This document shows, one piece after another, positions 4,780 through 60,851 of a DNA stretch of 64,000 bases (the stretch's first letter is position 1; every line of letters starts with the position of its first letter). The stretch comes from Parcubacteria bacterium C7867-005 (GTDB lineage: Bacteria; Patescibacteriota; Minisyncoccia; Phycocordibacterales; Zambryskibacteraceae). The translations under genes and the position numbers were made by a program. The notes beneath the pieces were generated by a model. The model was not told the origin of the DNA and did no database searches. It saw only the letters and a list, made by a program, of their open reading frames with translations. The stretch covers positions 84,321-148,320 of the forward strand of contig LFCO01000001.1 in assembly GCA_001189165.1 (NCBI GenBank), read 5' to 3'.

Positions 4780-4835
4780 GCCCCCAGGATTTACTTGGTT
4801 GGGTTTGGTCTTTCACACCATGGAGGAACAAGAAG

Positions 4836-5072
4836 ATGATTTGGGTATTCCTGTTCGAGTTGGCCATATGGATCTTCGTGCCACTCATCGTGGCAACGCA
4901 GGTCATCATCCCGCTTTGGCGGGGACGGCCGACATTCCCTCTGCTTCGGCGGAGGCCGCAGGTGATCGACAAGATCGATAGGGCTCGAAGTGAGGTCAAT
5001 GACGCCGAGCTCGAACTCGTCGCACGTCGTACGGAGAAGGAAGCCGAGAAGCTTCGCGGCAAGGTCCGCTAG
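4836..5072 (+). CDS. small single-TM plus coiled-coil protein (high GC), upstream partner of the SPFH protein
   Basis: 78 aa, MIWVFLFELAIWIFVPLIVATQVII then a charged helix. GGAGGA RBS 8 nt upstream. GC about 60%. Confidence 0.5.
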   Translation: MIWVFLFELAIWIFVPLIVATQVIIPLWRGRPTFPLLRRRPQVIDKIDRARSEVNDAELELVARRTEKEAEKLRGKVR

Positions 5073-5126
5073 GGAGCCGCAGGGTAGGATCAGTAGTTCA
5101 TCCAATCACCCGTAGGAAACCAGGAG

Positions 5127-6431
5127 ATGTTCATGTCCGCTTTTGGGGAAGTTCGTTCGGAGTGGGGGCTTCGCAAGATCGTACTTGCCGTCGCTTCCGG
5201 TTTCGGAGTCATCGCGCTCATCGTCTTCGGCAGCATGCTGCTCGAGAACAACGGCGCGAGCGAGATCATGGTGGTGCAGTCGCCGCTCAGCGGTGAGTTC
5301 ACCGTCTACAAGACCCCCGGTCTCAAGATGCAGGGTGGGGGCACGATCACGCGGTACAAGCTTCGCGATCAGTTCTGGTTCTCTTCCGACCCCAGCAGGG
5401 GCAGCGGAGAGGATCAGTCGATCGAGATCCGCTTCAACGACAACGGCAGGGCACGTCTCTCGGGTTCAATCTCATGGGAGATGCCCCTCTCCGACAGCGC
5501 CATCATCCAGCTCCATCGGCAGTACGGTAGCGCCGAGGCGATCCAGCACCAGCTCATCAGCACCGTGGTCGGCAAGTCGGTCTTCTTGACCGGTCCGCTC
5601 ATGTCTTCGACGGAGTCAAACTCCACGAAGCGCAACGATCTACTCTCGCTCATCATCGATCAGATCAATCACGGCGTCTACAAGACCGAAAGCCGTGAGA
5701 CACGTGTCCAGGACGAGATGACCGGCGTGACCAAGACCGTTCGTATCACAACGCTCGTTCCGAGCACGGTCGCGGCTGATCGCGGGTACGCTCGTCAGGA
5801 GGGATCCCCCCTGGATGAGTTCAACATCCGCACCTTCAATCTCGCCATCGACCAGATTCACTACGATTCGACGGTCGAGATGCAGATCAAGCAGCAGCAG
5901 ACCGCCATCATGCAGGTTCAGACCGCTCTCGCGCAGGCGAAGACCGCCGAACAGGCGGCCATCACTGCGGAGAAGAACGGTCAGGCCGAAGCGGCGAAGG
6001 CGCGATGGGAACAGGAAGTGATCAAGGCGAGAGAAGTCACCAGCGCGGAACAGCGTCGTGAAGTCGCTCGTCTCGATGCTGAAGCGGCAGACTTTCGCAA
6101 GTTGGCGAACATCCGCGACGGTGAAGGCGAGGCTCGCAAGCGCCAGCTCATCATGAACGCCGACGGCGCACTCAGTATGAAGCTGGAAGCCTTCGTCAAG
6201 GTGAACCAGTTCTACGCCACCGCAATCCAGGGATACACAGGCAACTGGGTTCCCTCGATCGTCATGGGTTCGAGTGGTGCGAGCAGTGCACCGGGATCCG
6301 GTGCCAACGGCCTCATCGACATGTTGATGGCCAGGACCGCAAGGGATCTGGCGCTCGACTTTCGGGCGGGCCTCGGCAACGATCCAGCGCGACCGCGGGC
6401 GGCAACACCAGCCCCCCGCAGTACTCCGTAG
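5127..6431 (+). CDS. SPFH/band-7 (flotillin/stomatin-like) membrane protein, high GC
   Basis: N-terminal TM (IVLAVASGFGVIALIVFGSML), SPFH-like core and a long Q/A/E-rich coiled coil (QIKQQQTAIMQVQTALAQAKTAEQAAITAEK). GC about 62% against a 40% backbone. Alternative start at 5133. Confidence 0.65.
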   Translation: MFMSAFGEVRSEWGLRKIVLAVASGFGVIALIVFGSMLLENNGASEIMVVQSPLSGEFTVYKTPGLKMQGGGTITRYKLRDQFWFSSDPSRGSGEDQSIEIRFNDNGRARLSGSISWEMPLSDSAIIQLHRQYGSAEAIQHQLISTVVGKSVFLTGPLMSSTESNSTKRNDLLSLIIDQINHGVYKTESRETRVQDEMTGVTKTVRITTLVPSTVAADRGYARQEGSPLDEFNIRTFNLAIDQIHYDSTVEMQIKQQQTAIMQVQTALAQAKTAEQAAITAEKNGQAEAAKARWEQEVIKAREVTSAEQRREVARLDAEAADFRKLANIRDGEGEARKRQLIMNADGALSMKLEAFVKVNQFYATAIQGYTGNWVPSIVMGSSGASSAPGSGANGLIDMLMARTARDLALDFRAGLGNDPARPRAATPAPRSTP

Positions 6432-6457
6432 TCGTCCTTCCGTGATGTAGGTAGTAA

Positions 6458-6495
6458 AGAGGTGGTAGCCATTGGCTGCCACCTCTATTTTGTAT
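6458..6495 (+). terminator. rho-independent terminator after the SPFH gene
   Basis: Hairpin agaggtggtagcc-attg-gctgccacctct followed by attttgtat. Confidence 0.55.
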
Positions 6496-6534
6496 ATACA
6501 GATCGATGTTTTGTGCTCTGGTGAGTTATCCACA

Positions 6535-6564
6535 TGGACAGGTGAACCATAGTTCACCTATACT
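6535..6564 (+). promoter_or_regulatory. SOS promoter with LexA (Cheo-type) box: TGGACA-N18-TATACT with AGGTGAAC-CATA-GTTCACCT in the spacer
   Basis: Perfect 8-bp inverted repeat containing GAAC-N4-GTTC at 6544-6555. -35 TGGACA at 6535-6540 and -10 TATACT at 6559-6564. Lies upstream of a small ORF and lexA. Confidence 0.7.
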
Positions 6565-6590
6565 AAATACAGTCAAATAAGAATAAAACC

Positions 6591-6797
6591 ATGAGCACAC
6601 AAAACGTAGAAAAAATATTGAGAAAGGAGTTAGAGACTTTGAATAACACCATCGACAAGAAGATCCTCAAAGGACTCTCTTATGCCAAAGAGGCGCGGGA
6701 ACACAAATACCTCTTGGCCAGATTACTTGAGAGGAAGAGAGCTTCCAGATTATCTTTCTTTAGTAAACTATCTTTCGTTCCCACATTCTTTCTATAA
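6591..6797 (+). CDS. small hypothetical protein between the LexA box and lexA (SOS-regulated candidate)
   Basis: 68-aa ORF with a charged N-terminus and hydrophobic C-terminus (RLSFFSKLSFVPTFFL); co-directional with lexA 10 nt downstream. Confidence 0.35.
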   Translation: MSTQNVEKILRKELETLNNTIDKKILKGLSYAKEAREHKYLLARLLERKRASRLSFFSKLSFVPTFFL

Positions 6798-6806
6798 GAT
6801 AGAGAT

Positions 6807-7373
6807 ATGAACGAAAGCCACAGGAACAAAATAGTTTCTTTCTATCAGAAAAATAAACGCATGCCCGGATATCAGGAGATCATGGGTTTGGTTGGTTTCA
6901 AGTCCAAAAATGCTGTTTATAAACTCATCAACAAACTCGTGGAAGAAGGTGTAGTTAACAAGGATTCAAGGGGCAAACTTACACCGAACAAACTTTTTGG
7001 AGAGATACCGATACTCGGTTTAGTTGAAGCGGGGTTTCCAACTTCTACTGACGAAGTTCTCACTGACACATTGTCCATAGATGATTATCTAGTCGAACAC
7101 AAAGAGGCGAGCTACTTACTCGAAGTAAAGGGGGACTCGATGATTGATGAGGGTATCAAAGAAGGGGACCTCGTACTTGTTGAACGTAAGGGAGAACCGA
7201 AAGATGGCGACATCGTAATCGCTGAAGTAGATGGCGGATGGACGATGAAATATTTCCGTAAAAGGGCAGGCAAAATATATCTCGAAGCAGCGAATAAAAA
7301 CTATAAACCAATTTATCCTAAATACGACTTCAGGGTAGCAGCAATAGTCAAAGGGGTGATTAGGAAGTACTAG
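6807..7373 (+). CDS. lexA: LexA repressor (S24 peptidase)
   Basis: N-terminal wHTH and C-terminal LLEVKGDSMIDEGIKEGDLVLV with Ser, plus a KYFRK Lys dyad. Confidence 0.85.
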   Translation: MNESHRNKIVSFYQKNKRMPGYQEIMGLVGFKSKNAVYKLINKLVEEGVVNKDSRGKLTPNKLFGEIPILGLVEAGFPTSTDEVLTDTLSIDDYLVEHKEASYLLEVKGDSMIDEGIKEGDLVLVERKGEPKDGDIVIAEVDGGWTMKYFRKRAGKIYLEAANKNYKPIYPKYDFRVAAIVKGVIRKY

Positions 7374-7413
7374 AAAAAACTCTGGGGGCTTGACTGTTAT
7401 TTATATTTATTTG

Positions 7414-7449
7414 TGGTATAATCAGACTAGATTGACACGAACGTGTCAA
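7414..7449 (+). promoter_or_regulatory. extended -10 promoter (TGgTATAAT) followed by the operator-like perfect palindrome TTGACACG-AA-CGTGTCAA
   Basis: TATAAT at 7417-7422 preceded by TGG. An 18-bp perfect inverted repeat at 7432-7449 lies between the promoter and the start of the high-GC protease gene; its half-site is shared with the repeats at 27630 and 40067. Confidence 0.45.
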
Positions 7450-7496
7450 ACGGATGGTTCTCTGACATTCAATCCAAACAAAGCGGAGGCACAGTT

Positions 7497-8888
7497 ATGC
7501 GTACCAAGCTTTCCAGCATTGGGCTGGCGGCTATGATTGCTGCCACCCTAGTCGTCTTCATCGGCTGTGGTGAGGGGACGTCTCCAGTGGAGCCGCCCCC
7601 TCCAGTAGAAGTAGTCACCGCGGTGATCGTCAGCCCGACAAGCGGGCAGGTGATCTCTTCGGGTCCGACCGTCCTGTCGGCGACCGCGCGGTCGTCGAAG
7701 ATCGGTGATATCACCGATCCGTCCAAGTATCTTTGGACGATCGACGGATCTCAAGTGGGGAACGGCATGGCCCTGTCCACGAACCTCACACCCGGTTCAC
7801 ATCAGGTGTGTGTCAGTGTCCAGGGATCGTCTGGGGCAAGTGGTAACACCTGCGTCCCACTGTCGGTCGTTCACGCACAACTCGTCGGGAAGGTGGTCGT
7901 CACAGACCTTCTTCAGGGCGAGGTCGTTCCCGTCGGTGTTCGCATCAAGCTTTTCGTCTCTGGGGCAGATACGATTTCAACCAATGTCGCTCCGGACGGA
8001 AGCTTCTCTGCGAACGTCTTCGGGTTCCTGAACAAGGACAGCATCAGCTTCATCGTCGATGCGGTGAATACCTCTTCTCGGATTTACCATCCGATGAGGG
8101 GGACGTTCGCCAAGGCTCTCGTGGAGAAGCCGGTCATTTTCATCATGACTCCACTTGCAGTCACTATCCCTAACGGCGTTTACGCCGGCAGGGTGGTTGA
8201 TATGAGGTTGAGCCGAGCGTATGTCGCCGGTGGTGACGCCCTCGGATTCTTCGATCGTCGCCCGTACGATGTTGGTGGTATTCCCATGTACAGGGTCAAG
8301 AGCCACAAGGTTCTCCCCGTACCTCTGGTGATCAGAAACGACCTCGGTGATACACCAATCACCGCGAGCGACTCTGTCGCCATGTGGGGATTCGTCACTA
8401 CGCTCGAAGATCACATCGGTCTGGATCTGTTCAGGCCGGCGATGAAGAGCGAAGAGAACGACACCCTGGGTATCGATGTGTACATGCTGTCGAACTTGGC
8501 CAAACCCGCCTTCGGTGGGTCGGACGGCATCCTCTATCCCACGCCCGGTAGCACCAGCTTGGGGAGAGGTCGCGCGACATTCAGAGGACGAGATGTCCTC
8601 CTGAATAACGGCGGCGGTGTCTTCAGACACGAACTCATCCACGTCCTTGGCTTCGACCACGGATGTGGGTTCCAAAGCATTCAGAACACCGAATGCAGTG
8701 GTGTGAGTATCGACTACACCGGCTTCGTCTCGGGGATCCCGAGTCCGTTCGATGTCGCATACGCCCGACTGATGTATGTGACGGCCGCGCTCGAGGACAA
8801 GTACAGCACCCACTTCTCCATCATGGAGAGCCATCAGGGTGAGCGAGAGCTCATGCTGGGACTCCCCAGAGAGATCGTGAGGAGATAG
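7497..8888 (+). CDS. secreted lipoprotein metzincin-type zinc metalloprotease with Ig-like and CarboxypepD_reg-like domains (high GC)
   Basis: MRTKLSSIGLAAMIAATLVVFIGC has a signal peptide plus lipobox. HELIHVLGFDH is the metzincin HExxHxxGxxH signature. GGAGG RBS before 7497. GC about 62%. The ORF track starts at 7443. Confidence 0.65.
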   Translation: MRTKLSSIGLAAMIAATLVVFIGCGEGTSPVEPPPPVEVVTAVIVSPTSGQVISSGPTVLSATARSSKIGDITDPSKYLWTIDGSQVGNGMALSTNLTPGSHQVCVSVQGSSGASGNTCVPLSVVHAQLVGKVVVTDLLQGEVVPVGVRIKLFVSGADTISTNVAPDGSFSANVFGFLNKDSISFIVDAVNTSSRIYHPMRGTFAKALVEKPVIFIMTPLAVTIPNGVYAGRVVDMRLSRAYVAGGDALGFFDRRPYDVGGIPMYRVKSHKVLPVPLVIRNDLGDTPITASDSVAMWGFVTTLEDHIGLDLFRPAMKSEENDTLGIDVYMLSNLAKPAFGGSDGILYPTPGSTSLGRGRATFRGRDVLLNNGGGVFRHELIHVLGFDHGCGFQSIQNTECSGVSIDYTGFVSGIPSPFDVAYARLMYVTAALEDKYSTHFSIMESHQGERELMLGLPREIVRR

Positions 8889-8939
8889 GGAGTTTGGATT
8901 GAATTGATAGCCCCCGCGGTACCCATCCGCGTGGAGCAT

Positions 8940-8970
8940 GGCCCCGACACCTGTCGGGGCCTCTTACTTT
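8940..8970 (+). terminator. rho-independent terminator (ggccccgacac-ctg-tcggggcc plus T-rich tail)
   Basis: Perfect 9-bp GC stem downstream of the protease stop. The stem sequence is shared with hairpins at 60264 and 32228. Confidence 0.55.
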
Positions 8971-8996
8971 ACAAATAGTCTACTATTTGCTATAAT
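8968..8996 (+). promoter_or_regulatory. sigma70-like promoter TTTACA-N17-TGcTATAAT for the DEAD-box helicase
   Basis: -35 at 8968-8973, -10 at 8991-8996 with TGc extension. A 5'UTR hairpin (cggaagagg..ccttcttccg) follows at 9060-9099. Confidence 0.5.
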
Positions 8997-9105
8997 AGTG
9001 TCTAAGAATATCTCATTCGTTGTTCGTATCCGAGAGTAACCAACTTTATTAACTCTCTACGGAAGAGGCCAGTCCTAAGACGCGCGAGACCTTCTTCCGA
9101 ATAAT

Positions 9106-10311
9106 ATGTATCAAAAAAGATCTTTTGGGCGTAGCCCAAGTACGAGAGGCCATAGACCATACCAAGGGCGCCCACCGATGAGGAGGAGTGCTGGTGGTTT
9201 CCGTGGTCAGAAACTCGACATCAATAGTTTTATAAACAAAGCGGTTATCGTAGAAGAATTCGATCACTTCGTTCCTGAACACGCATTCAGTGACTTTGTC
9301 ATAGAGGGAAAGCTCAAGAAAAACATCGCAGCCAAAGGTTACGTCGCTCCAACCTCTATCCAAGACAGGACGATACCTCACATCCTTAAGGGCCAAGATG
9401 TTGTCGGTATAGCCAATACAGGTACAGGCAAGACAGCAGCATTCCTCATCCCTTTAGTGGACAAGATGATGAAGAATCCAGATGGATCTGTACTCATCGT
9501 CGTACCTACAAGAGAGCTCGCTACACAGATAAATGATGAGCTAAAAGGCTTTGCTCCAGGCACAGGACTTTTCTCTGTTGTTTGTGTTGGTGGTACACCA
9601 ATGGGGAACCAGCTCAAGGAACTCCGATATAAAAACCATTTCATCATTGGCACGCCCGGTAGATTGAAAGACCTCATAGAGAGGCGCGCATTGGATTTAT
9701 CCAAAACGTCTTCAGTTGTATTAGACGAAGCGGACAGAATGCTCGATATGGGTTTTATGCCCGACATGAAATTCATTATGGCCAAAATGCCAAGTGAAAG
9801 ACATACACTTTTCTTCTCAGCGACTATGTCCAAAGAGATAGAAAAGTTAATACATGAATTCTTAAACGAGCCAGTATCTATTTCAGTAAAAACTCAAGAT
9901 ACATCAAAAAATGTTGATCAGGATATCGTCCGCATGAGAGCGGGGGAAGACAAAATCCTAGCACTCGAAGAATTACTCAAAAAAGAAGATTTCAACAAGG
10001 TACTTATCTTTGGTCGTACTAAACATGGCGTAGAGAGGTTGGCCAAAACACTATCAGTCAGAGGTTTTGCCGCAGACTCTATCCATGGAGACAAGAGCCA
10101 GGGCCAGAGACAAAGAGCTCTAAATGCTTTTAAGGAAAACAAACTCAAGATCTTGGTTGCTACTGACGTAGCTGCCAGAGGACTCGACATCCCACTCGTA
10201 TCTCATGTGATCAATTTTGACATTCCTGCGACGTACGAAGACTACATTCACCGCATTGGCCGTACAGGTAGAGCCGGTGCAGTAGGCAAGGCCCTTACTT
10301 TCGTAGAATAA
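9106..10311 (+). CDS. DEAD-box ATP-dependent RNA helicase
   Basis: Q-motif, ANTGTGKTAAF, PTRELA, VLDEADRMLDMGF, SAT and HRIGRTGRAG motifs. Confidence 0.9.
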   Translation: MYQKRSFGRSPSTRGHRPYQGRPPMRRSAGGFRGQKLDINSFINKAVIVEEFDHFVPEHAFSDFVIEGKLKKNIAAKGYVAPTSIQDRTIPHILKGQDVVGIANTGTGKTAAFLIPLVDKMMKNPDGSVLIVVPTRELATQINDELKGFAPGTGLFSVVCVGGTPMGNQLKELRYKNHFIIGTPGRLKDLIERRALDLSKTSSVVLDEADRMLDMGFMPDMKFIMAKMPSERHTLFFSATMSKEIEKLIHEFLNEPVSISVKTQDTSKNVDQDIVRMRAGEDKILALEELLKKEDFNKVLIFGRTKHGVERLAKTLSVRGFAADSIHGDKSQGQRQRALNAFKENKLKILVATDVAARGLDIPLVSHVINFDIPATYEDYIHRIGRTGRAGAVGKALTFVE

Positions 10312-10313
10312 CA

Positions 10314-10793
10314 ATGAGGAAAACTCTTCTGACTATTGTTGTTTTGTTTCTGGTTATCTTATTTTGGCTTTTTTTGCGTAAACCAGAAAAAATAGATCTG
10401 AATATTAGTCCAGATCAACAAGGAGAGGTCCCTACTACCACCTCAACAGGATTTACCTTGAGTCAGAATTCTATAGTAGTAGATTTGCCCAAAACGAATT
10501 CTACAACCACCTCTCCAATCAATCTTTCGGGCAAGGCTCGTGGAAATTGGTTTTTCGAAGCCAGCGCTCCGGTCCAAGTTGTGGATGATAAGGGCAATGT
10601 CCTCGGCCAGAGTCATGTAGAAGCGACGGGTGACTGGATGACTACAGAATTCGTGCCCTTTACTGGTAGTGTTGTTTATAAAAATCCAACAGGCACCACG
10701 ACCAAGGGGTTTGTCGTTTTTTCGAACGACAATCCATCCGGTGATCCAGAGAGAAGTGTTTCAGTCAAAATCCCTATAAATTTCAAGAGATAG
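10314..10793 (+). CDS. secreted Gmad2-like Ig-fold protein
   Basis: N-terminal TM/signal. C-terminal NWFFEASAPVQVVDDKGNVLGQSHVEATGDWMTTEFVPFTGSV resembles the Gmad2 domain. Confidence 0.4.
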   Translation: MRKTLLTIVVLFLVILFWLFLRKPEKIDLNISPDQQGEVPTTTSTGFTLSQNSIVVDLPKTNSTTTSPINLSGKARGNWFFEASAPVQVVDDKGNVLGQSHVEATGDWMTTEFVPFTGSVVYKNPTGTTTKGFVVFSNDNPSGDPERSVSVKIPINFKR

Positions 10794-10801
10794 ACTTAGG
10801 T

Positions 10802-11521
10802 TTATTGTTCTCTACCTCGGTCAGGCTGAAATGGAAGACTGTTCCTCACAGGAACTTTTCTGATTATTTCTAGTATCTCATCATGGTCATCTGTGATCGT
10901 GTATAGGGATAGATCCGGTTCGCTGATGGTTTCTCTGGAGAGCAAGGTTTCTTTCAAAAAGTTTTCTACATTTCTCCAATAATCTCCTCCAACGCAGATG
11001 ATGGGCACACCCTCGATTTTTTTTGTCTGGATGAGAGTCATGATCTCAAAAAATTCGTCCAAGGTACCGAACCCTCCAGGAAAGAAAACAAAAGCTTCTG
11101 CAGAGAAAGAGAGCATCACCTTACGCACGAAGAAATAATAGTGATCAACCTGTTTAGTGATGTATTTATTAATCGTCTGTTCGCTAGGGAGTTTGATCGT
11201 CACACCGAGTGATGTTCCACCAACTTCGAAGGCACCTCTGTTTGCGGCTTCCATAATCCCTGGACCTCCGCCAGATGCTACTGCGTAGTTGAGTTCTTTG
11301 GCTATACGCCCAGCGAGAGTTCGTGCACTTTGATAGTAAGGGTTATCTTCCTTGAATTGATTTGATCCGAAAAAAGTTACTGATTTAGGGTTATCTTCGA
11401 GGAACCTGAATCCCTCAACAAATTCTTTGGTTATTTCAGACACTCGGTCTAGGGCTACCTCCTGAACTTCTTTTGGGGTTAGGGTTAGCGTGTTTTTATC
11501 TGTATTCATGCGCAATATCAT
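10802..11521 (-). CDS. LOG-family (TIGR00730) Rossmann-fold nucleotide-binding protein
   Basis: [19 protein letters not shown] and [12 protein letters not shown] motifs. Confidence 0.75.
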
Positions 11522-11588
11522 ACCATACGGGGATAGCGAACTAGCTACATTTTGTGTGCGAGTTATACTAAAAAGGAATAAAAAATAT

Positions 11589-12065
11589 ATGAAACACTTA
11601 AATCGAAATCAATGGATCGGTGTCGCCGCTGGCCTGGGCTTTGTTGGGTACCTCTTTTATGGAGGAGCTTTTGTTAATCTTTTTAATCAAAACAATCCAT
11701 CCATGCAAAACGATTCTATGTCTCTAAAAACGGGTGTACAAGTTAGTGATGTGGTTGTGGGGAATGGAGACGCAGCTCTAGCTGGAGACGTCATAACCGT
11801 TCACTATGTTGGTTCACTTACAGACGGCAAGGTCTTTGACAGTTCTCTGGACAGGAAGCAACCCATCACCTTTACTCTCGGTGTTGGACAGGTTATCCGC
11901 GGATGGGACGAGGGTGTCGCAGGTATGAGAGTTGGAGGCAGGCGCAAGCTACTCATTGCCCCTGACTATGGTTATGGAGAGAACGGTATCGGCCCAATAC
12001 CTCCAAGTTCTACCCTTATTTTTGAAGTCGAATTACTAAAGATTGAGAAGCCAGTAGCCAGATAG
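11589..12065 (+). CDS. FKBP-type peptidyl-prolyl cis-trans isomerase (secreted/membrane-anchored)
   Basis: [59 protein letters not shown]. Start chosen at 11589 to avoid overlap with the LOG gene; the ORF track starts at 11490. Confidence 0.75.
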
Positions 12066-12078
12066 CATTCATGTATAT

Positions 12079-12708: not shown

Positions 12709-12738
12709 GGATACCCACCTTACGGTGGGCAGTCGCGC

Positions 12739-12924
12739 CTAGTGTCCTGGTCCATACCGCACTCTCTTGGCTAGGCTCGAGAGGAGGGGGATGACAGCGA
12801 AGATCGCGAACGAGAGGACGAGTATTCCCGCACCGATCTCGTAGCACCAGAAAAACACGAGGGACGCCAGTCCGAAGAACAAAGCCAGGAATCCGAGCCT
12901 CACGCGAAGCATCTTCTTTTCCAC
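12739..12924 (-). CDS. small 2-TM membrane protein, high-GC island
   Basis: 61 aa, two hydrophobic helices. GC is far above the backbone. Hairpin cccacc-ttac-ggtggg at 12714-12729 just past its stop. Confidence 0.3.
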   Translation of the reverse strand: MEKKMLRVRLGFLALFFGLASLVFFWCYEIGAGILVLSFAIFAVIPLLSSLAKRVRYGPGH

Positions 12925-13015
12925 CTTTCCCTCCAGATCCTGGTTTGGGGTATGCGTGATGTAATCTAACTCCTACTATACCCTAATTTTCGTATAAAAT
13001 TATCCATGCTAAAAT

Positions 13016-48444: not shown

Positions 48445-48540
48445 GGAGCCCTCCTCATGGGTTTGGGGTGGTTTTGGTTCCGCCGACAACAATACTGTTT
48501 GTTTTGAATTTGGTCAATATCACTATTTTTATACTAAGAA

Positions 48541-48691: not shown

Positions 48692-48710
48692 GGGTCCTCC
48701 GCGAGTGGTG

Positions 48711-49580: not shown

Positions 49581-49595
49581 GATGACTTAAGTCTA

Positions 49596-50891: not shown

Positions 50892-50892
50892 T

Positions 50893-53330: not shown

Positions 53331-54433
53331 GTGCGTTGTGTGACTTGGGTTTTAGATATAGAGAGGACGATACCAACTTCAAGTAAGGTGATAAAAAGCG
53401 ATGTGCCACCATGACTGACAAAAGGCAAAGTAATCCCCGAGAGTGGAATAACCCCAAGCATGGCTCCTATATTCACAAACGCTTGGCAGACTATCATTAT
53501 AACAATTCCCACAACCAAGAGTCTACCGAACTGATCAGGAACCCTCGAGGCTATTTTGAGTCCCCTGGTAGCAAAAAATACAAACAAAACTATCAAAGTA
53601 GTCGCTCCGACGAAACCAAATTCTTCTGCTTGCACTGCAAAGATAGAATCTCCAATCGGTTCAGGTAAAAAGTTAAATTTTTGGACACTTTGGCCAAACC
53701 CCCTACCAAACAATCCCCCCGATCCAATGGCTATGAGTGATTGTTGTATTTGATAGCTTGAGCCTCTTGCATTATCTCCCGGTTTCAAAAAAGTACTGAT
53801 ACGCTCCATGACATACGGCCTGGTTAGTGCGAGCAGGATGATGCCGATTATCCCAGATAAAATCAAAAGAGAAAGATGCCTCCACTTCCCTCCTCCGGCG
53901 AGGAATATAGCCAAACCAGAGCAGATGATCATCATAAAAGTATCAGTGTCTGGTTGTAGGAGAAGTAATATCCCAGAGATTACAAATAAGATAATTAAAG
54001 GTAGTAAACCAAATTTAAATGTTTCCATCTTGCTTTTGACGCTTGATACCCAAGCAGCAAAATAGATAATAAAACCAAGCTTTAGTATTTCAGACGGTTG
54101 AAAAGAAAATCCCCAAATATAGAACCATCTCCTGGCCCCATTGTGCTCGAATCCAAGTTGGGGGATGAGGACGAGGATGTTCAGTGCAATGGCTAGAAAC
54201 AAAAGATAAAAAGCATACGTTTTCCATATTTTGTGGTCTATCTTTGACACCACGAGCATAGCTACTGAACCCAAAAATAAACCCAAAACAGTTTGTGAGA
54301 AGGCTATGGAAGAATATTTGTCGCTGCTCTTAGCAAGTATACCTAGGGATGCAGAACTAAATATAAAAAAACCAGCGATCATCAGTATGATGATCGAAAA
54401 TAGAAATGGTTTGTCTACCTTCCACTTTTTCAT
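53327..54433 (-). CDS. ftsW: SEDS-family peptidoglycan polymerase (FtsW/RodA)
   Basis: 10-TM SEDS pattern, located between mraY and murG. Confidence 0.75.
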   Translation of the reverse strand: MKKWKVDKPFLFSIIILMIAGFFIFSSASLGILAKSSDKYSSIAFSQTVLGLFLGSVAMLVVSKIDHKIWKTYAFYLLFLAIALNILVLIPQLGFEHNGARRWFYIWGFSFQPSEILKLGFIIYFAAWVSSVKSKMETFKFGLLPLIILFVISGILLLLQPDTDTFMMIICSGLAIFLAGGGKWRHLSLLILSGIIGIILLALTRPYVMERISTFLKPGDNARGSSYQIQQSLIAIGSGGLFGRGFGQSVQKFNFLPEPIGDSIFAVQAEEFGFVGATTLIVLFVFFATRGLKIASRVPDQFGRLLVVGIVIMIVCQAFVNIGAMLGVIPLSGITLPFVSHGGTSLFITLLEVGIVLSISKTQVTQRT

Positions 54434-54469
54434 GTGGCTATTATAGCACCGTGAATCCGATAAATAACT

Positions 54470-55552
54470 CTAGTCGAGGAGAGCAAGTACCAGACCAAGC
54501 ATCGCAAAGATAACAGATATGATCCAATACCGCATGGTTACTTTATAGGCGGGCCAGCCTATTGCTTCAAAATGATGGTGGAGCGGCGCTATCAAAAAAA
54601 CCTTTTTACCACCCCTCATCTTTTTAGATAAAACTTGAATTATGTTTGATAGAGTTGTGACCAAAAGTGGTAGGGCTATGATAGGTAAGACCAAAACCCC
54701 ATAACCTCCACCAATCGAATCTGTCATAAATGCCACAACAGCGAGTGTGATAGTTAGCCCCATACTCCCTGTCTCCGACATATAAAATCTCGCGGGTGGA
54801 ATGTTGTACCAGAGAAATGCGAGGATACCTCCAAGGACTACTGCGCAAAAGGCAGCTAGGTTTATCTGCTGTTGATAGAAAGCTATCCCCGCATAGGCAG
54901 CGAACATTGTGGCAAATGTTCCTCCTGCCAAACCGTCTATGCCGTCTATGACCCCACCAGAATAAAGTGCGAGCATCACTAATACAAAGAAAGGTATAAA
55001 GAATACTCCCAGATCAAGCACCCCCCAACTTTGTGGTAACCCGATTATATGAACATCTAATTTAAAATAAAACCAGAGAGCTGCTGCCAAACCGATAGTT
55101 GTGATGATGATAAGCCTCTTAGATAGGGACAATCCTCCAGCGGCATTATCTCCCCCTCCTTTAATTTCGAGGATATCGTCCACCAATCCAACTAATGCTC
55201 CAAAGATCAGAGTAAAAAGTGGAATCCAAGTCTGGTTCCTTGAGAGTAGATCGAGCTTAGAAAGGGTTAGGCTATCTGGAAATATATGACTCAAGATCCA
55301 AGTTCCAAGGACAGTGACAAGCACTGAGGCCCAGATAACAATGCCGCCCATCCTGGGTGTGCCAACTTCTTTTTCTTTGTGCAGTTCATTAAACACTGGA
55401 GTTCCTCCTCCGCCTATGCCAACATGTTTGCCAGATTTTTTCTTCCACATCTTATTTTTATAAAGATAGTCAGTGAGGATTGGGGCAAAAAACATACCCA
55501 AACCGAAGGCGATGATTGGAGGAGTGAATATTTTTACAACATCTATAATCAT
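54470..55552 (-). CDS. mraY: phospho-MurNAc-pentapeptide translocase
   Basis: Multi-TM with DDxxD-like and HHHFE motifs. Confidence 0.85.
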   Translation of the reverse strand: MIIDVVKIFTPPIIAFGLGMFFAPILTDYLYKNKMWKKKSGKHVGIGGGGTPVFNELHKEKEVGTPRMGGIVIWASVLVTVLGTWILSHIFPDSLTLSKLDLLSRNQTWIPLFTLIFGALVGLVDDILEIKGGGDNAAGGLSLSKRLIIITTIGLAAALWFYFKLDVHIIGLPQSWGVLDLGVFFIPFFVLVMLALYSGGVIDGIDGLAGGTFATMFAAYAGIAFYQQQINLAAFCAVVLGGILAFLWYNIPPARFYMSETGSMGLTITLAVVAFMTDSIGGGYGVLVLPIIALPLLVTTLSNIIQVLSKKMRGGKKVFLIAPLHHHFEAIGWPAYKVTMRYWIISVIFAMLGLVLALLD

Positions 55553-55561
55553 ATAGATAAA

Positions 55562-56527
55562 TTATAAGTTACTTATAGGTTCGGCTGAAAGGGATAACAG
55601 GGTGGCTCGCACCAGTTTCTCTACGTCTCTAAATCGTTCTTCAGCTGTTGAACCCAAAACAGAGATGATTATTGGCCTACCAAGTTCCGGGTCAAAGGCA
55701 ATCACCAAATTGCCACCAGCAATATCTGTAAAACCAGTTTTTGATCCTTTGATACCGGGAATGTCCGCTACTATTTGATCAGTATTGACCGCAGTATGAA
55801 CAAAATTATCCATGGACCTTATAGTGATAGTGTCATGTTTTGTAGCCTCGAGTAGATTTGGATTATTCTTTAGAATATAAGCGAACAGAGAGGCAACATC
55901 CTTTGCTGATCCATATGCACCGCCCTTCTTATCTGATTCATCTAGGCCGGTCTCATTAAAGAAATACGTATTTTTCATACCCAATTTGTTTGCCATGGTA
56001 TTCATAGAGTTGATGAAGTCCACCTCTTTTTCTTTGTCTGTAGCATCAGATTTGCCTATCGCACCCAAGGCAAGCGCCACAGCTTTGGTGCCATCGTTTG
56101 ATGAACTAGTAAGAGAAAAATCCAATAAATCCTTCAAGCTCCACCTCTCGCCGACCCTTAGACCACTGTCTCCATCTGTGCGGATTGCTTTGTTAGTTAT
56201 AGTAATGACACTTTCCTCTGGAGCGATGCTTATTGCCACTAGAGCAGACATAACTTTGGTTAGTGATGCGAGGGGCAGTCTCTCGGACTCGTTTTTGCTA
56301 TAAATTATTTTGTTTTCTCTTATATCAAAAACATATGCAGCTTTGGCATTTATTTCTACACTATCAAAAGGGTTTATGACTACTTCAGAAGGAACAGAGG
56401 TACCATCCCTCATAACTTTGTTACTCATGATGGTAGAGATTAATATGAGTGCGACCAAAAGAACGCCTAAGGCGGCGATAAAACGTAGTTCGTGCTTATT
56501 TGTCAGGATAGGTGTGTGTATGGTCAT
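55562..56527 (-). CDS. D-alanyl-D-alanine carboxypeptidase (S11, PBP5/6-like)
   Basis: ASLTKVM (SxxK), SSSN (SxN), KTGFT (KTG). Confidence 0.75.
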   Translation of the reverse strand: MTIHTPILTNKHELRFIAALGVLLVALILISTIMSNKVMRDGTSVPSEVVINPFDSVEINAKAAYVFDIRENKIIYSKNESERLPLASLTKVMSALVAISIAPEESVITITNKAIRTDGDSGLRVGERWSLKDLLDFSLTSSSNDGTKAVALALGAIGKSDATDKEKEVDFINSMNTMANKLGMKNTYFFNETGLDESDKKGGAYGSAKDVASLFAYILKNNPNLLEATKHDTITIRSMDNFVHTAVNTDQIVADIPGIKGSKTGFTDIAGGNLVIAFDPELGRPIIISVLGSTAEERFRDVEKLVRATLLSLSAEPISNL

Positions 56528-57099
56528 GAGGTCATTTCAGTAGGTTCATCTCCACTATCTTCACTGGTTTTAGCAAATGATTCAAGCTTGGAAAAAGCTG
56601 TTTCAAACTCAGGCAAATCCTCCACCCTCTTAACTCCGAGAAATCTTAACAGTTCTATAGTTGGTTTGTAACTAAAACTTCTTTCGCCCTTTTCGCTTTC
56701 ACTTCTCTCCACCAAGCCCCTTATCAATAAATTTCTTATGATAAATCCAGAATTCACCCCTCTTATGTAATCAATCTCCTTGCGAGATATTGGTCCTTTG
56801 TAAAGAATTATGGAAAGTGTCTCGAGCCCTGCCCTACCCAGATCCCTAGAGAACTCCTCTTTTTGGAGTTTTTCTATAACAGATGATGCATTTGGGCTAG
56901 TGCCAAAAGTTACTTTCTCTCCATCAGAGACTAGTACTATTCCCCTGTCGCCATAGAATTTTTGTAGTGACAGAACCGCGGATCTGACATCATCCGGATT
57001 TTCCTCAGTAGATTTTGAAAGTTCGGTGATAGTTATCGGTTCGTTTTTGAAGAACAGTATCGCTTCTATGAGTGATTCAAGTTTAGTGTCTTTAGGCAT
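56524..57099 (-). CDS. scpB: segregation and condensation protein B
   Basis: LIEAILFFKNEPITITEL and a second winged helix with LETLSIILYKGPISRKEIDYIRGV. Confidence 0.8.
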   Translation of the reverse strand: MPKDTKLESLIEAILFFKNEPITITELSKSTEENPDDVRSAVLSLQKFYGDRGIVLVSDGEKVTFGTSPNASSVIEKLQKEEFSRDLGRAGLETLSIILYKGPISRKEIDYIRGVNSGFIIRNLLIRGLVERSESEKGERSFSYKPTIELLRFLGVKRVEDLPEFETAFSKLESFAKTSEDSGDEPTEMTS

Positions 57100-57844
57100 A
57101 ATGCGGAATTCCTACATTTTCTGTTTCCATCTCTATATCGCCTCCGGCTTCTTGTGTGACCCTTATGGCCCCTCGCTTTACGAGTTCCAGCATAGCAAGA
57201 AAACCGACTATTATCATCACTTTGTTTTCGTGTGTTAGCGCACCCCTTTTCATATTAGATTTGTAGAAATCAGTGAAATTCATTTTGATACCTCTTGATA
57301 TTCTTTCTGCAAGTTTCTCTATGGTTTCCTCCAGACTAATCATTTTCCTTATGACTGTTTTGGGTAGATTCTCTTTTTTCGGTAGCGATTCGAGCACTCT
57401 GTTCAGTGCAGAAAGGAGATATGTTTGGTTTGTCTTGGAATCCGGTGAGAAAACCACAACCGCCTCCTTGGATGGAGTTTTTTCAAAAATTATGTTTTTA
57501 CCAAATAATTTTTTGATATTTATGGAGAGTTCTTTTACACGCGCATAAATGACAAGACGCCTTTCCAAATCTTCGATTGAAGCTTCCTCTTCTTCAGACA
57601 ATTCGAGCATTGGGAGTAGTGATCTGGATTTAACCAGCATAAGCGTAGACGCGATCACTATGAATTCAGCACTCTCCCCTATGGGGAATTTTTCATGCGA
57701 CTCGATATATTTGATAAAATCGTCAGTCACCTCAGAAAGTGATACGTCGTTTACAAAAAGCTTTCTTTTTTCTACTAGGTCAAGGAGGAGGTCCAGGGGC
57801 CCTTCGAAGACACCCGTCTTTACTTTGTAGTTGAATCTGTCCAT
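57092..57844 (-). CDS. scpA: segregation and condensation protein A
   Basis: FEGPLDLLLDLVEKRKLFVNDVSLSEVTDDFIKYI. Confidence 0.8.
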   Translation of the reverse strand: MDRFNYKVKTGVFEGPLDLLLDLVEKRKLFVNDVSLSEVTDDFIKYIESHEKFPIGESAEFIVIASTLMLVKSRSLLPMLELSEEEEASIEDLERRLVIYARVKELSINIKKLFGKNIIFEKTPSKEAVVVFSPDSKTNQTYLLSALNRVLESLPKKENLPKTVIRKMISLEETIEKLAERISRGIKMNFTDFYKSNMKRGALTHENKVMIIVGFLAMLELVKRGAIRVTQEAGGDIEMETENVGIPHYA

Positions 57845-57938
57845 TTACGGCCAATTATAGCCTTTTAAGCCTAGTTTTGGAAGAAAACTATTTGATTTCA
57901 GAAGGCTGTACCCTAAGTCAGGTTGGTGGGGCTAGGAG

Positions 57939-60164
57939 CTAGTTTGCCTTCAAAGGCACCGCGAGCATAGTCCAGCTTCTTGTTGATCCCCAACTCCAAG
58001 ACATGCTTGATGCATTTGGTTTGCTTGAGCCTCCACCGATAACTCCATCACCCAGCCATGTTGTTGTGTTTGTGCGGACATTCCATCTTTCTGATTGAGT
58101 TGTGCTTGCAGTAGGAGTTCCATAAGTGAGTGAGTCACTTTCTCTTGAGAAGACATCAAAAACTAAATCATTTGTTGAGGTTACTATTTCTCCTAGTGAC
58201 GCAGTGTTACCTCTGCCGTTACTAATGAGCATCTGGCCAAATGGAGTTGTTTGATTAACACCAAAATATGAAGCTGATCCCGCTACAAATTTCATGGTTC
58301 CCGTCCATGTAAAGGTAACGCTACCCGTGCCTGTTGGCGGATTTATCAAGTACCACAGTTGTGTTTGTGTCATCACATTACCGTTTGAGAGATACGAAGA
58401 TGTTCCAAGATGGGTTAGATTAAGTCCGTTGTACGTCACTGAAGTTACTTGTCTGTTGGGATTTACGATGCCGGTAGAGACTCCAACCAAGAGGATTCTG
58501 TCTGCCCCTGTCCCTATAGTATGGCTCCAGGTTAAGGTTGTTAGATTTGAATTTCCAGGTACTGAAGTAGAGTTTGATGAGTCGAAGACGATATTTCCAC
58601 TCGAAGGAGGTGGTAGAGGAGCAGCAACACTGAATGTTATTGAATAGTCAGATGTGTTTTCGTTGTTTGATGCATCGAGGCATCGAACATAGTAATTGTA
58701 GCTTTGGCCATCAACTAATCCGATAATTGGTTGTGAGTGATCCAGGTTTCCTGTTGTTAGGAAAGTGTTTGTCATTGAACCATAAGGAGTGTTTGGTGTA
58801 GTGGAGTATCTGCAGGTAGCATTTTCGCTTGTCATCAGACTGATTGTTGTTTGCCTGGTTCCTGCATCAAATATTCCCGAAGGAAATCCACCACTTCTTG
58901 TAGGAGCTGTGGTGTCTGGAATTGTGTTATCGACAATTACATTAATTGTAAATTCCTGTGTGTTCCCTGCCATGTCTCTGGCGGTAGCAGAGACAACATG
59001 TGCTCCAAATGTTGCTGTTGTTGTATTCCAAGATATAGAGTATGGCAAACTCGTGTCTTCAGCGTCGAGGTTATTTCCGTCTAATTTGAATTGAACTCCA
59101 GCAACACTCCTATCATCTGTTGCGGTCGCATTTATGCTTATTGTCCCAGAGACATTTGAATCGTTTGAAGGACTGACTATAGAGACAGTTGGTGAAGTTG
59201 TATCAGGGGCTTGGTTCATCTGCCATCCTGTAAGCCTGGCTAACATCCACCAAAACGCCCTTGCTTTGAGATTACAATTTAGTGGGTCTGAGTGAGCACA
59301 TACGGCAACATTCGGTGCTGCTCTAAAGGCGCAAAGATCATTCACTTCTTCAGGATGTGAATCGCACCATTCAACGGCCCAATAAGTTTCCTCGTCCCAT
59401 AGACTTCCTGACCCGTCGCTGTCATAACGGGTGCTATCTCTTGAGAGTCTTGTCATATACTCACCTCCTGATGGGTCGTAGCTTTCTATGTCTGCATAAT
59501 CGTAAAGTATTCTGTCTGTCCCACGGACGAAATTTCTTATCTGTTCATTTCTTTGGTTTGCATTCCCATTCTCCCCCGTGCCTGATAGGGTGATTGTCAT
59601 ATAGACAAATTTGACATCCGGATAGTCAGTTTCTAGCTGTGACATCAGATTAAGGTATGTGTTGATGTCAGCTTCTGTAGAACTTTCTCCGTGACCACTC
59701 CATGCCCACATAACGACATTTCTATTGTTGTTTGGGTCGTCTAGGTGTCGTCTGGTTGCGTAATACCATGCTGTCCTATCGGGGTTAGCTAGGTTGTTTG
59801 CTTCTGGCCATGTCCGCATACTCCATAGTGACAGGACTCCAGCTGGTAGTTGGGAGCGATAATCATCACAGTACTGGTAGATGTCGTTTCCTGGGTTGTA
59901 ACCACTACATTCAATAGCCATTTCTATGGTTTGGCCCTGGAGCATGTTTGTACCAGTTATAAGCTGGCCACCATGAGAAGAGTGCCCGTAGTCTATTCTA
60001 AAGCTATTTTTTGCTTGTTGTATTACAGAATCGGGTATATTTTCAAAATCAGTAATAGATGTATGGTCAGCTATAAGGGCAGAGGCAGAATTAGGAATAA
60101 GTGTTAGGCACAACAACAGAAATAAACCAGACACAACATTTGAAATGTTCGTACTTTTTTGCAT
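57939..60164 (-). CDS. large secreted multidomain protein: N-terminal putative hydrolase-like domain plus Ig-like/FN3-like repeats and C-terminal beta-sandwich
   Basis: Signal peptide; Big-like segment PTVSIVSPSNDSNVSGTISINATATDDRSVAGVQFKLDG; FN3-like segment; 741 aa; backbone GC. Confidence 0.4.
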   Translation of the reverse strand: MQKSTNISNVVSGLFLLLCLTLIPNSASALIADHTSITDFENIPDSVIQQAKNSFRIDYGHSSHGGQLITGTNMLQGQTIEMAIECSGYNPGNDIYQYCDDYRSQLPAGVLSLWSMRTWPEANNLANPDRTAWYYATRRHLDDPNNNRNVVMWAWSGHGESSTEADINTYLNLMSQLETDYPDVKFVYMTITLSGTGENGNANQRNEQIRNFVRGTDRILYDYADIESYDPSGGEYMTRLSRDSTRYDSDGSGSLWDEETYWAVEWCDSHPEEVNDLCAFRAAPNVAVCAHSDPLNCNLKARAFWWMLARLTGWQMNQAPDTTSPTVSIVSPSNDSNVSGTISINATATDDRSVAGVQFKLDGNNLDAEDTSLPYSISWNTTTATFGAHVVSATARDMAGNTQEFTINVIVDNTIPDTTAPTRSGGFPSGIFDAGTRQTTISLMTSENATCRYSTTPNTPYGSMTNTFLTTGNLDHSQPIIGLVDGQSYNYYVRCLDASNNENTSDYSITFSVAAPLPPPSSGNIVFDSSNSTSVPGNSNLTTLTWSHTIGTGADRILLVGVSTGIVNPNRQVTSVTYNGLNLTHLGTSSYLSNGNVMTQTQLWYLINPPTGTGSVTFTWTGTMKFVAGSASYFGVNQTTPFGQMLISNGRGNTASLGEIVTSTNDLVFDVFSRESDSLTYGTPTASTTQSERWNVRTNTTTWLGDGVIGGGSSKPNASSMSWSWGSTRSWTMLAVPLKAN

Positions 60165-60263
60165 TATCTAAGTTAATACTCAATGTCTAGGCCTGTCAAC
60201 AAAACCTAAATTGAGCTATATAGGCATAAATATGTCAATTTTAAACACATTATAAAAGAATGA

Positions 60264-60291
60264 GGGCCCCGACACGCGAGTGTCGGGGCCC
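60264..60291. terminator. hairpin gggccccgacac-gcgag-tgtcggggccc downstream of the high-GC lipoprotein gene
   Basis: 11-bp GC stem sharing ggccccgacac with the 8940 terminator. Loop and flanks cacgcgagtg are shared with the 27660 hairpin. Confidence 0.5.
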
Positions 60292-60315
60292 TGTTAGTTC
60301 ATGGCTGACTGCCTA

Positions 60316-60768
60316 TCAGCCCTTGCCACCTTCGAACGGAACGATGATGACCTTGACGCTATCCTTCTGGGTCGGATCGATCCGCGATCGGAAGTGGAAC
60401 CAGCTGATTCCGATCTGACCCTCCGGGGTGAGCTCCCAGACCTCATAGTGGGTCACCGACTCCTTGTAGCCGTTGCCGATCGGGGTGACGTTCGTGTAGT
60501 TCCCCTCGGACCGCTTCATCGCCGACACGAAATCGTCGTTCGTCCTGACCATGATCACGTCGGCGTCATCCGTCGAGTTCCGCCCGATGACGGTACTCTG
60601 GATGAAGACGTACCCGTTCGTATTCACGGGCATGATCAGGGCAGGTTCGCCCGCCGAGACCGCGACTGCGATCCGCTCCTTCGGCTCTGTCGGGCTGTCA
60701 CCGCAGGCCGTGGTGGCCATGGTGACAGCAGCGAGCAAGATCACGGGCAACAAACGCAAGTACTTCAT
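60316..60768 (-). CDS. small lipoprotein (hypothetical), high GC
   Basis: MKYLRLLPVILLAAVTMATTAC has a signal peptide plus lipobox. 150 aa, GC about 60%. Confidence 0.5.
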   Translation of the reverse strand: MKYLRLLPVILLAAVTMATTACGDSPTEPKERIAVAVSAGEPALIMPVNTNGYVFIQSTVIGRNSTDDADVIMVRTNDDFVSAMKRSEGNYTNVTPIGNGYKESVTHYEVWELTPEGQIGISWFHFRSRIDPTQKDSVKVIIVPFEGGKG

Positions 60769-60851
60769 GTCAGAGCCTCCAGGCTCACGGGGTGGGTGTA
60801 CTGCGGCACTTCTACCTGAACACTAGCATATTATACCACTAATGTCAAGTA

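Follow-up and report, generated by a model that had tools for sequence, protein, structure and literature searches.

Why should a run of housekeeping genes in a Parcubacteria chromosome be interrupted by eight short stretches of markedly higher GC content, and where could these stretches have come from? The question is raised by a 64,000-nucleotide piece of the genome of Parcubacteria bacterium C7867-005 (the whole of this stretch is termed the window below), a bin obtained from a Hanford aquifer metagenome (Nelson and Stegen 2015) and comprising 3 scaffolds of 563,550 bp in total with 42% GC (PMC4508563). The same genome is also deposited as the UBA metagenome-assembled genome (MAG) GCA_002396705.1, with contig DGYO01000004.1. 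The eight stretches, named islands A to H, are probably independent horizontal acquisitions of one to three genes each, drawn from sources with a GC content above that of this 43% GC Paceibacteria genome.

Composition and anatomy of the islands

The backbone of the window, measured in 300-bp windows, has a mean GC content of 0.427 (sd 0.032, maximum 0.507) and carries housekeeping genes such as lexA, a DEAD helicase gene, holB, frr, lysS, mraZ, mur genes, dinB and aspS. Eight GC-rich islands had been proposed in a first-pass annotation of this DNA, and all of them were recovered, at the same positions or within about 50 bp of them, with GC contents of 53–59% versus 42.7% for the backbone:

Island A: GC segment 4810–6514, GC 0.591
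Island B: GC segment 7451–8991, GC 0.572
Island C: GC segment 12652–12964, GC 0.543
Island D: GC segment 21966–22695, GC 0.588
Island E: GC segment 28110–28495, GC 0.531
Island F: GC segment 46032–46636, GC 0.557
Island G: GC segment 48054–49152, GC 0.545
Island H: GC segment 60244–60860, GC 0.575

The islands range in size from 0.2 to 1.7 kb and jointly make up 10.9% of the window. Every one of them has a GC content above that of the top backbone window of equal length, with z-scores against equal-length backbone windows from 3.6 (C and E, the weakest, E having already been called weaker in the first-pass annotation) to 12.3 (A). Pooled GC contents at the first, second and third codon positions (GC1, GC2 and GC3) are 0.56, 0.44 and 0.75 in the islands versus 0.51, 0.37 and 0.42 in the backbone; the GC excess is thus located at synonymous sites, and amino-acid composition was rejected as the cause of the high island GC. 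From backbone to islands, codon choice shifts from 0.66 to 0.07 for AAA, from 0.41 to 0.03 for ATA, from 0.62 to 0.09 for TTT and from 0.15 to 0.49 for CCG. The tetranucleotide z-scores of islands and backbone correlate at 0.35, versus a mean of 0.70 and a minimum of 0.57 for size-matched backbone samples, so that the uniform codon usage and tetranucleotide signature that would speak against foreign islands were not found. Genes for tRNA, rRNA or other structured RNA were rejected as the identity of the GC-rich segments, since no tRNA or Rfam family lies within any island; the sole tRNA gene of the window (27477–27550) is about 550 bp from island E, the nearest island, and not at an island edge.

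Each island carries one to three open reading frames (ORFs), and 6 of the 10 main ORFs encode membrane proteins, lipoproteins or secreted proteins, in agreement with the earlier description of one to three genes for secreted, membrane or unknown proteins. The island ends are marked by the following promoters and terminators, which are predicted from consensus matches in the sequence; contig L087, described below, carries a second copy of the island A genes:

Island A promoter: 4721–4749 (+), TTGACT, 17-nt spacer, extended -10 element TGTGCTAGGGT; pattern match, homologous to the L087 promoter
Island A 5′ untranslated region (5′ UTR): 4750–4835 (+), three predicted hairpins; counterpart at L087 776–861
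Island A terminator-like hairpin: 6458–6486 (+), 13-bp stem and T tail; top-ranked terminator in 4400–13200
Island B promoter: 7390–7422 (+), TTGACT followed by TGTGGTATAAT; pattern match
Island B terminator-like hairpin: 8940–8961 (+), terminator scan
Island C terminator-like hairpin: 12712–12731 (-), terminator scan
Island D promoter: 21934–21963 (+), TTGACA-18-TGTGCTAGTAT, beginning 4 nt past the lysS stop codon
Island E terminator-like hairpin: 28464–28488 (+), overlapping the stop codon
Island F promoter-like site: 45978–46006 (+), TTGACT-17-TATTAT; weaker
Island G terminator-like hairpin: 48085–48102 (-), GCCACCC-GAAA-GGGTGGC then TTTCTT; read by eye, missed by the scanner
Island H promoter: 60820–60848 (-), TTGACA followed by TATGCTAGTGT, beginning 3 nt past the aspS stop codon
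Island H terminator-like hairpin: 60263–60292 (-), 13-bp stem with 10 G-C pairs; top-ranked terminator in 45900–61000

The pattern TTGAC-N15–19-TGnTAnnnT occurs 6 times in the window versus 0.73 expected, with four of the six occurrences directly upstream of islands A, B, D and H, and the D and H promoters are closely alike across 32 nt. A shared element at the island 5′ ends was considered and rejected, the similarity being essentially that of the consensus promoter itself. The strongest terminator-like hairpins of their regions in the terminator scan close islands A, B, C, E and H. The first-pass annotation had ascribed AT-rich extended -10 promoters and abutting hairpin terminators to several islands; the promoters hold for A, B, D and H (with the weaker site at F) and the terminators for A, B, C, E and H (and, by eye, G), while no terminator-like hairpin was seen at D.

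Flanking direct repeats or target-site duplications beyond chance were not found at the islands, and no integrase, transposase or recombinase gene is present among the annotated flanking genes, the rest of the window not having been scanned for them; on both points the first-pass annotation had said the same. The islands gave no meaningful PADLOC matches to defence systems, and an NCBIfam scan of the island proteins returned no matches. As they bear their own promoters and terminators at their ends, without repeats or a recombinase among the neighbours, the islands are, judged by these predicted signals, complete units of transcription, of which the adjoining AT-rich promoter forms part, and more than coding sequences alone. 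The earlier proposal of an insertion precise to the coding sequence is thus replaced by that of a whole transcription unit, and for island A the DNA homology with the L087 copy starts at the promoter.

Several features adjoining the islands deserve description. A possible ninth, weaker island lies at 32195–32659 (-), with a GC content of 0.536 (GC segment 32195–32513); its ORF (32264–32659, -) has a GC3 of 0.56, no Pfam hit and a consensus promoter at 32659–32631. Adjoining island H, a gene at 57939–60164 (-) encodes a 741-aa Ser/Thr/Asn-rich surface protein with a Big_7 domain, which has backbone GC and an unusual composition with GC2 above GC1. The two SOS-type genes of the window, lexA and dinB, each have islands on both sides; in the relatives examined, no enrichment of islands beside lexA was found, their number being by eye about what the share of sequence predicts. 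At 48058–48085 (-), dinB appears to start 7 nt after a -10-like box (TGCTAGTAA), which suggests a leaderless mRNA. A 68-aa ORF without a Pfam family (6591–6797, +) lies directly upstream of lexA and accompanies it in about 75 of the 80 Paceibacteria examined; its product may be a LexA partner that has escaped recognition.

Island genes and their relatives

The islands contain the following genes:

A1: 4836–5072 (+), 78-aa protein, transmembrane helix at the N-terminus, charged tail; GC3 0.73
A2: 5133–6431 (+), 432-aa SPFH/Band 7 protein of a phage-borne family
B: 7497–8888 (+), 463-aa lipoprotein, lipobox FIGC; GC3 0.70
C: 12739–12924 (-), 61-aa two-helix membrane protein between holB and frr; GC3 0.74
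D: 22019–22672 (+), 217-aa secreted protein, predicted 12-stranded beta-barrel, between lysS and mraZ; GC3 0.85
E: 28095–28478 (+), basic soluble protein, 127 aa from a TTG start, weakest island; GC 0.526, GC3 0.62
F: 46058–46549 (+), 163-aa cytoplasmic protein; GC3 0.79
G2: 48711–49091 (-), 126-aa protein; GC3 0.70
Zinc-ribbon ORF: 48548–48691 (-), 47 aa with CxxC...CxxC, between G2 and G1 and followed by a hairpin; absent from the first-pass annotation
G1: 48109–48492 (-), 127 aa from a TTG start; GC3 0.79
H: 60316–60768 (-), 150-aa lipoprotein, lipobox TTAC-G; GC3 0.85

Island A is identified, from its sequence relatives, as a putative two-gene phage module, namely a domesticated SPFH pair. 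A2 passes the Pfam Band_7 cut-off (PF01145; 27.3 bits, cut-off 23.6), matches phrog_11908 over its full length (E = 1.3e-37) and has at least 628 relatives at E ≤ 0.001 among 8,000 candidates scored. Its family was found by an alignment-based scan in 35 IMG/VR contigs, many of them 100–466 kb long, and, among deposited phages, is known from crAss-like ones of Bacteroides, from those of Vibrio and Aeromonas and from an uncultured one of 462 kb; A2 is 33% identical to the crAss001 protein annotated as 'SPFH-domain/band7-family protein'. In 11 of these IMG/VR contigs the SPFH gene is immediately preceded by a homologue of A1, which points to a conserved partner. Three of the close non-Paceibacteria homologues of A2 whose contigs were read, P0012 (60%), P0011 (60%) and P0016 (55%), are on phage-like contigs with co-directional small ORFs and genes such as those for integrase, ribonucleotide reductase, RNA ligase and DnaB, and their GC contents closely match those of their contigs (0.586 and 0.576 for P0012, 0.525 and 0.546 for P0011, 0.638 and 0.670 for P0016). 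The likeness to phage SPFH/Band 7 proteins (phrog_11908, crAss001) comprises the full-length alignment of A2 and the small upstream membrane partner, whereas in the window the pair has its own promoter and lies by itself in a bacterial chromosome.

The nearest relative of A2, P0008 (75% amino-acid identity), is encoded on the 2,965-bp contig L087 in the order RNase T-like exonuclease gene (GC 0.36), 79-aa gene (GC 0.51), SPFH gene (GC 0.54) and DEAD helicase gene, and A1 shares 56% identity with the L087 copy. L087 belongs to a related Paceibacterium, where the A module occupies another locus and once more forms a GC island (0.54 versus 0.36). DNA similarity between the two copies extends from the -35 box on through the 5′ UTR, and since homology begins at the -35 box at both loci, the promoter would belong to the mobile or inherited A unit. 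All three predicted hairpins of the 5′ UTR are present in both copies. The first has undergone a compensatory change (CAGGG/CCCUG in the window, CGAGG/CCUCG in L087), and the third, in which UCUUUC pairs with the Shine-Dalgarno sequence GGAGG, may act as a translational switch; the predicted folding energy of the 5′ UTR is no better than that of shuffled sequences.

The longest ORF of island B begins at 7443, and the public annotation places the start at 7497. The N-terminal half of the lipoprotein is predicted to contain tandem Ig-like domains, and the C-terminal domain bears HExxHxxGxxH, the zinc-binding motif of metzincin metallopeptidases, whose residues H378, E379, H382, G385 and H388 do not vary among the six family members, that is, B and its 5 relatives. 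The model of the C-terminal domain is of low to moderate confidence, too poor to establish a metzincin catalytic fold with its Met-turn, fold matches are dominated by the N-terminal Ig-like domains, and sequence matches to astacin, MMP and acutolysin are all below threshold. P0002 (46% identity to B; contig L002) lies between housekeeping genes of a Paceibacteria contig, with a GC content of 0.547 and a GC3 of 0.62 versus about 0.40 and 0.32, and has its own TTGACA-17-TGTATAGTAT promoter and terminator. P0003 (42%; contig L148) forms a similar GC island in a Paceibacteria contig (GC3 0.52), and P0005 forms a milder one (GC3 0.45 versus 0.28); the Paceibacteria contigs with a B homologue as a GC island are L002, L148 and L006. 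Two relatives are compositionally native, P0004 (42%; L149) beside a TetR regulator gene in a 0.59-GC contig and P0006 (L127) in a Longimicrobiaceae contig of 0.70 GC. B is thus provisionally assigned to a secreted Zn-protease-like family native in high-GC bacteria outside the candidate phyla radiation (CPR). The GC3 values of the family form a graded series (0.70, 0.62, 0.52, 0.45), and the Paceibacteria copies are not clearly grouped together, since the pairwise identities among B, P0002, P0003 and P0004 are all 42–48%.

Among representatives of 50%-identity clusters, 62 relatives of the island D product were found, of which the closest shares 45% identity with it; a scan of viral contigs found none. 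Its AlphaFold model, made with the alignment of these relatives, has a pLDDT of 93.4 and comprises a signal peptide and 12 antiparallel strands; the top PDB matches in Foldseek are KdgM, NanC, VhGalP and Omp33 (4fqe and 2wjq best), with TM-scores of 0.55–0.70. The fold is therefore predicted with high confidence as that of a 12-stranded, KdgM/NanC-like outer-membrane porin. D shares with these porins the signal peptide and the predicted 12 antiparallel strands and differs from them in its sequence (6–10% identity to the matched porins), in having no Pfam match, so that membership of the KdgM family by sequence was not found, and in a host phylum generally considered to have no outer membrane. 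Parcubacteria are described as having no secretin PilQ, like organisms without an outer membrane, and one report of an outer membrane is cited (PMC4508563). As its fold is that of an outer-membrane porin, the gene would ultimately come from a diderm bacterium.

The remaining islands encode proteins of less recognisable type. The start of E is more likely the ATG at 28137 (113 aa), and that of G1 may be Met17. E has no family match in Pfam, PHROG, NCBIfam or PADLOC; F has no relative in these four collections, in the PDB or among viral contigs; and for H none was found in searches that included Pfam, PHROG, NCBIfam and a viral-contig scan.

GC outliers in related Paceibacteria

A genome scan with LexA, which is encoded between islands A and B, yielded 80 related species of Taylor-, Zambryski- and Vogelbacteria-type Paceibacteria (LexA identity 65–82%, locus GC 0.31–0.54), in which the 10 kb on either side of LexA were examined. 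No homologue of an island protein is present within these regions in any of the 80 species. Gene order beyond the LexA pair is kept only in a few of them; the closest two, L007 and L010, share the order LexA...DEAD...Gmad2-LOG, and L007 continues through FKBP, HolB and RRF. The A and B slots of both hold other genes or none, and the C slot of L007 holds a non-homologous 109-aa membrane ORF on the same strand. Whether relatives carry the islands at the same loci can thus be answered for A, B and C, which are absent from all 80 LexA loci, the syntenic L007 and L010 included. A metagenome scan with DinB for the slots of F and G found only distant relatives (at most 47%) without usable synteny.

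With outlier genes defined as those whose GC content is more than 0.09 off the locus median, 64 of the 1,394 genes in the relatives are GC-rich outliers and 48 are AT-rich ones. The GC-rich ones occur almost only in loci with a median gene GC below about 0.44 and the AT-rich ones mostly above. With the window counted in, a homologue in other loci is lacking for 82% of GC-rich and 73% of AT-rich outliers, versus 39% of ordinary genes. The higher the backbone GC, the lower the mean GC deviation of singletons (slope -0.20, p = 5e-4, zero at 0.46), a trend that core genes do not display. Upstream of GC-rich genes, promoters close to the consensus are over-represented (odds ratio 5.7, p = 3e-4; relatives alone, odds ratio 4.0, p = 0.014). 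The window, in which 9–10 of about 75 genes are outliers, ranks high in this respect without being unique (L020 has 6 of 21). This clade-wide pattern is to be expected if genes are exchanged with a pool whose GC differs and is intermediate on average; a GC-raising mechanism does not predict it.

Some observations concern individual relatives. By eye, the GC-rich outliers of L067 (8084–13774) include PurD-, PurM- and PRPP-synthetase-like genes, and the high-GC relatives L010, L042 and L077 contain AT-rich outlier genes instead. tRNA genes were not borne out as an explanation of the islands in relatives. In L070, L073 and L081, a transfer-messenger RNA gene lies 1.4–2.7 kb downstream of lexA, and the encoded tag peptides are near-identical, ending in FAFAYALA or LAFAYALA.

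Origin of the islands

The horizontal acquisition that the first-pass annotation had proposed is supported by the foreign composition of the islands, by the absence of A, B and C from the relatives, by the native homologues of A and B elsewhere and by the porin fold of D. Compositionally native homologues are found in phage-like contigs for A2 and in L149 and L127 for B, the link of D to another source being by fold only. The ultimate sources are concluded to be heterogeneous, with A traced to phages, the B family to high-GC bacteria and D to a diderm bacterium. A, and perhaps B, probably reached this genome from another Paceibacterium or one of its phages; for A, this last step is placed within Paceibacteria and their phages because a Paceibacteria-type promoter and 5′ UTR travel with the genes. 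In a published survey, other Patescibacteria are reported as the source of 83% of the transfers that could be detected into Patescibacteria (PMC12455944).

Codon usage does not clearly single out a donor. Correlations of relative synonymous codon usage with the islands are 0.80, 0.75 and 0.74 for the high-GC Paceibacteria L010, L077 and L042 and 0.72 and 0.76 for two non-CPR high-GC contigs; together with the tetranucleotide correlations, they give no clear split (0.70–0.80 for high-GC Paceibacteria versus 0.72–0.76 for others). Island genes prefer CTC over CTG (0.50 versus 0.23), use AGR for 34% of arginine codons and GGT for 31% of glycine codons, and these preferences match high-GC Paceibacteria better than Bryobacteraceae or Longimicrobiaceae; for GGT, only L060 (0.32) matches among four, the other three being at 0.07–0.15. 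Partial amelioration could alternatively account for this Paceibacteria-like picture. The GARP/FYMINK amino-acid index of homologues did not reveal the GC content of their source.

The first-pass annotation had offered two other origins for the islands, a chimeric or contaminated assembly and an actinobacterial host of an epibiotic cell. The former, in which high-GC reads of the community were spliced into a Parcubacteria contig, is very improbable. The genome was indeed assembled from a metagenome, and the community also held Parcubacteria of 53–56% GC (PMC4508563). On the evidence of contigs and protein identity, the exact LexA is present on 4 contigs (one of 20–50 kb, one of 50–200 kb and two of 0.2–1 Mb) and the exact D protein likewise on 4, the 3 others in each case having been collapsed as having mostly the same neighbouring proteins, which makes a chimera unlikely; A2 and B agree at 100% identity with their counterparts in the Nelson-Stegen record of C7867-005, a separate deposit, and the databases holding these proteins include NCBI, JGI and Logan assemblies. 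All eight gene-sized inserts leave the flanking genes uninterrupted, with housekeeping order resuming on both sides, promoters and terminators instead of repeats occupy the junctions, and an equal architecture recurs in Paceibacteria contigs of unrelated samples and assemblers (L002–L005, L087 and L148) and across the 80 relatives. As for the latter origin, the islands are high in GC, and Saccharibacteria, another CPR group, live on Actinobacteria; such a host is nonetheless hardly credible as the donor. The named sources of matches are Parcubacteria/Patescibacteria, Bryobacteraceae, Longimicrobiaceae, an unclassified 'bacterium' and phages, none of them actinobacterial, most matches being nameless. 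The porin fold of D is that of an outer membrane, which typical Actinobacteria lack, and the 34% AGR and the preference for CTC over CTG differ from the usage typical of Actinobacteria.

Several points weigh against the acquisition of the islands from higher-GC sources. No high-identity donor was found for any of them, the best matches being at 75% (A2), 46% (B) and 45% (D); the absence from relatives covers the surroundings of LexA, that is, A, B and C only; no relatives could be detected for islands C, E, F, G and H, with no effective homologue search of a protein database behind that statement; and genes of phage and diderm origin stand behind Paceibacteria-type consensus promoters. The two copies of A, moreover, are about as diverged as the backbone (75% for A2 and 77% for the N-terminus of the DEAD helicase between the window and L087), with four-fold-site identities of 0.37 and 0.36 that are near saturation, and both still exceed their backbones by 0.32 to 0.36 in GC3, which is awkward for simple neutral amelioration; possibly both arrived recently from related, higher-GC, promoter-bearing carriers, or their GC is maintained. 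The islands might instead be long-term residents, an old Paceibacteria accessory pool inherited vertically or swapped as promoter-to-terminator units, with GC-rich synonymous sites maintained against AT-biased mutation by mRNA selection or GC-biased gene conversion. The persistent GC3 offset of the diverged A copies would be expected from such residents, as would their homologous promoter and 5′ UTR with its compensated hairpin and island codons that resemble Paceibacteria usage moved toward GC (CTC over CTG, retained AGR, GGT); of the homologues of the relatives' GC-rich outliers in other loci, about half are GC-rich, and the rest deviate by only +0.01 to +0.06. Long residence is nevertheless unlikely. 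The B family is graded in GC3 from 0.70 to 0.45 with no fixed offset, which favours amelioration; the AT-rich outliers of high-GC relatives are not predicted by a GC-raising mechanism; and the homologues in phages and high-GC bacteria fit the composition of the genomes that carry them. Known effects of GC-biased gene conversion in bacteria lie far below +0.3 in GC3. A bolder proposal, namely a Paceibacteria pool of recombinase-free single-gene cassettes that stayed GC-rich throughout the divergence of their hosts and included a porin insertable into the outer membrane of the host on which the cells depend, is likewise doubtful; for this, selection or biased conversion would have to counteract the mutational bias of the genome.

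Under independent acquisition from higher-GC sources, the preferred explanation, each self-contained unit (where recognisable, promoter, 5′ UTR, one or more ORFs and terminator) would have settled in an intergenic slot between housekeeping genes. Integration would have needed no dedicated recombinase, the likely route being uptake of DNA by the competence machinery followed by illegitimate or short-homology recombination; ComEC, ComF and DprA of this machinery belong to the core gene set of Parcubacteria (PMC4508563). The units would then persist as expressed and useful at the cell surface, their GC content decaying toward the host value and being now at different stages.

One close likeness is with the phage morons of Juhala and Hendrix, which are said to comprise one or more genes with their own promoter and terminator, of deviant composition and without a recombinase of their own. 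Islands and morons share the one or few genes, the own promoter and terminator (promoters predicted at A, B, D, H and F), the position between two residents and the deviant composition, and differ in that the islands lie among housekeeping genes of a cellular chromosome with no phage structural genes nearby. Transfers into Patescibacteria found by composition and phylogeny likewise concern single genes, mostly exchanged within Patescibacteria and often membrane-associated; promoter-to-terminator units and a dependence of the sign of GC deviation on backbone GC do not feature in the part of that survey considered here (PMC12455944). Genomic islands, integrative and conjugative elements and prophages share with the islands only the character of compositionally atypical accessory DNA: they exceed 10 kb, whereas the islands measure 0.2–1.7 kb and have no adjacent tRNA gene, no significant direct repeats and no integrase among the annotated neighbours, and a classical element of this type was accordingly rejected. 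An integron gene cassette was also rejected, as the units have their own promoters, are scattered singly and have no integrase in their flanks (no attC covariance models were run).

The process itself is a known one, single-gene horizontal acquisition in a CPR genome, here in an unusually clean form; worth recording are the moron-like units with consensus promoters, the domesticated phage SPFH pair and the porin-fold gene. The islands are real biology, to be kept in the MAG but not to be used for taxonomic or compositional binning. The clade-wide occurrence of GC-rich outliers in low-GC genomes and AT-rich outliers in high-GC genomes offers a simple handle on gene flux in Paceibacteria. The window serves as an example of how ultra-small, recombinase-poor CPR genomes may gain accessory functions, as ready-to-express units placed between housekeeping genes, with gains biased to surface proteins, here the phage-derived SPFH scaffold, the protease-like lipoprotein that is secreted and the porin-like barrel; the barrel is a lead on the cell envelope of Parcubacteria or on how these cells may tap their host.

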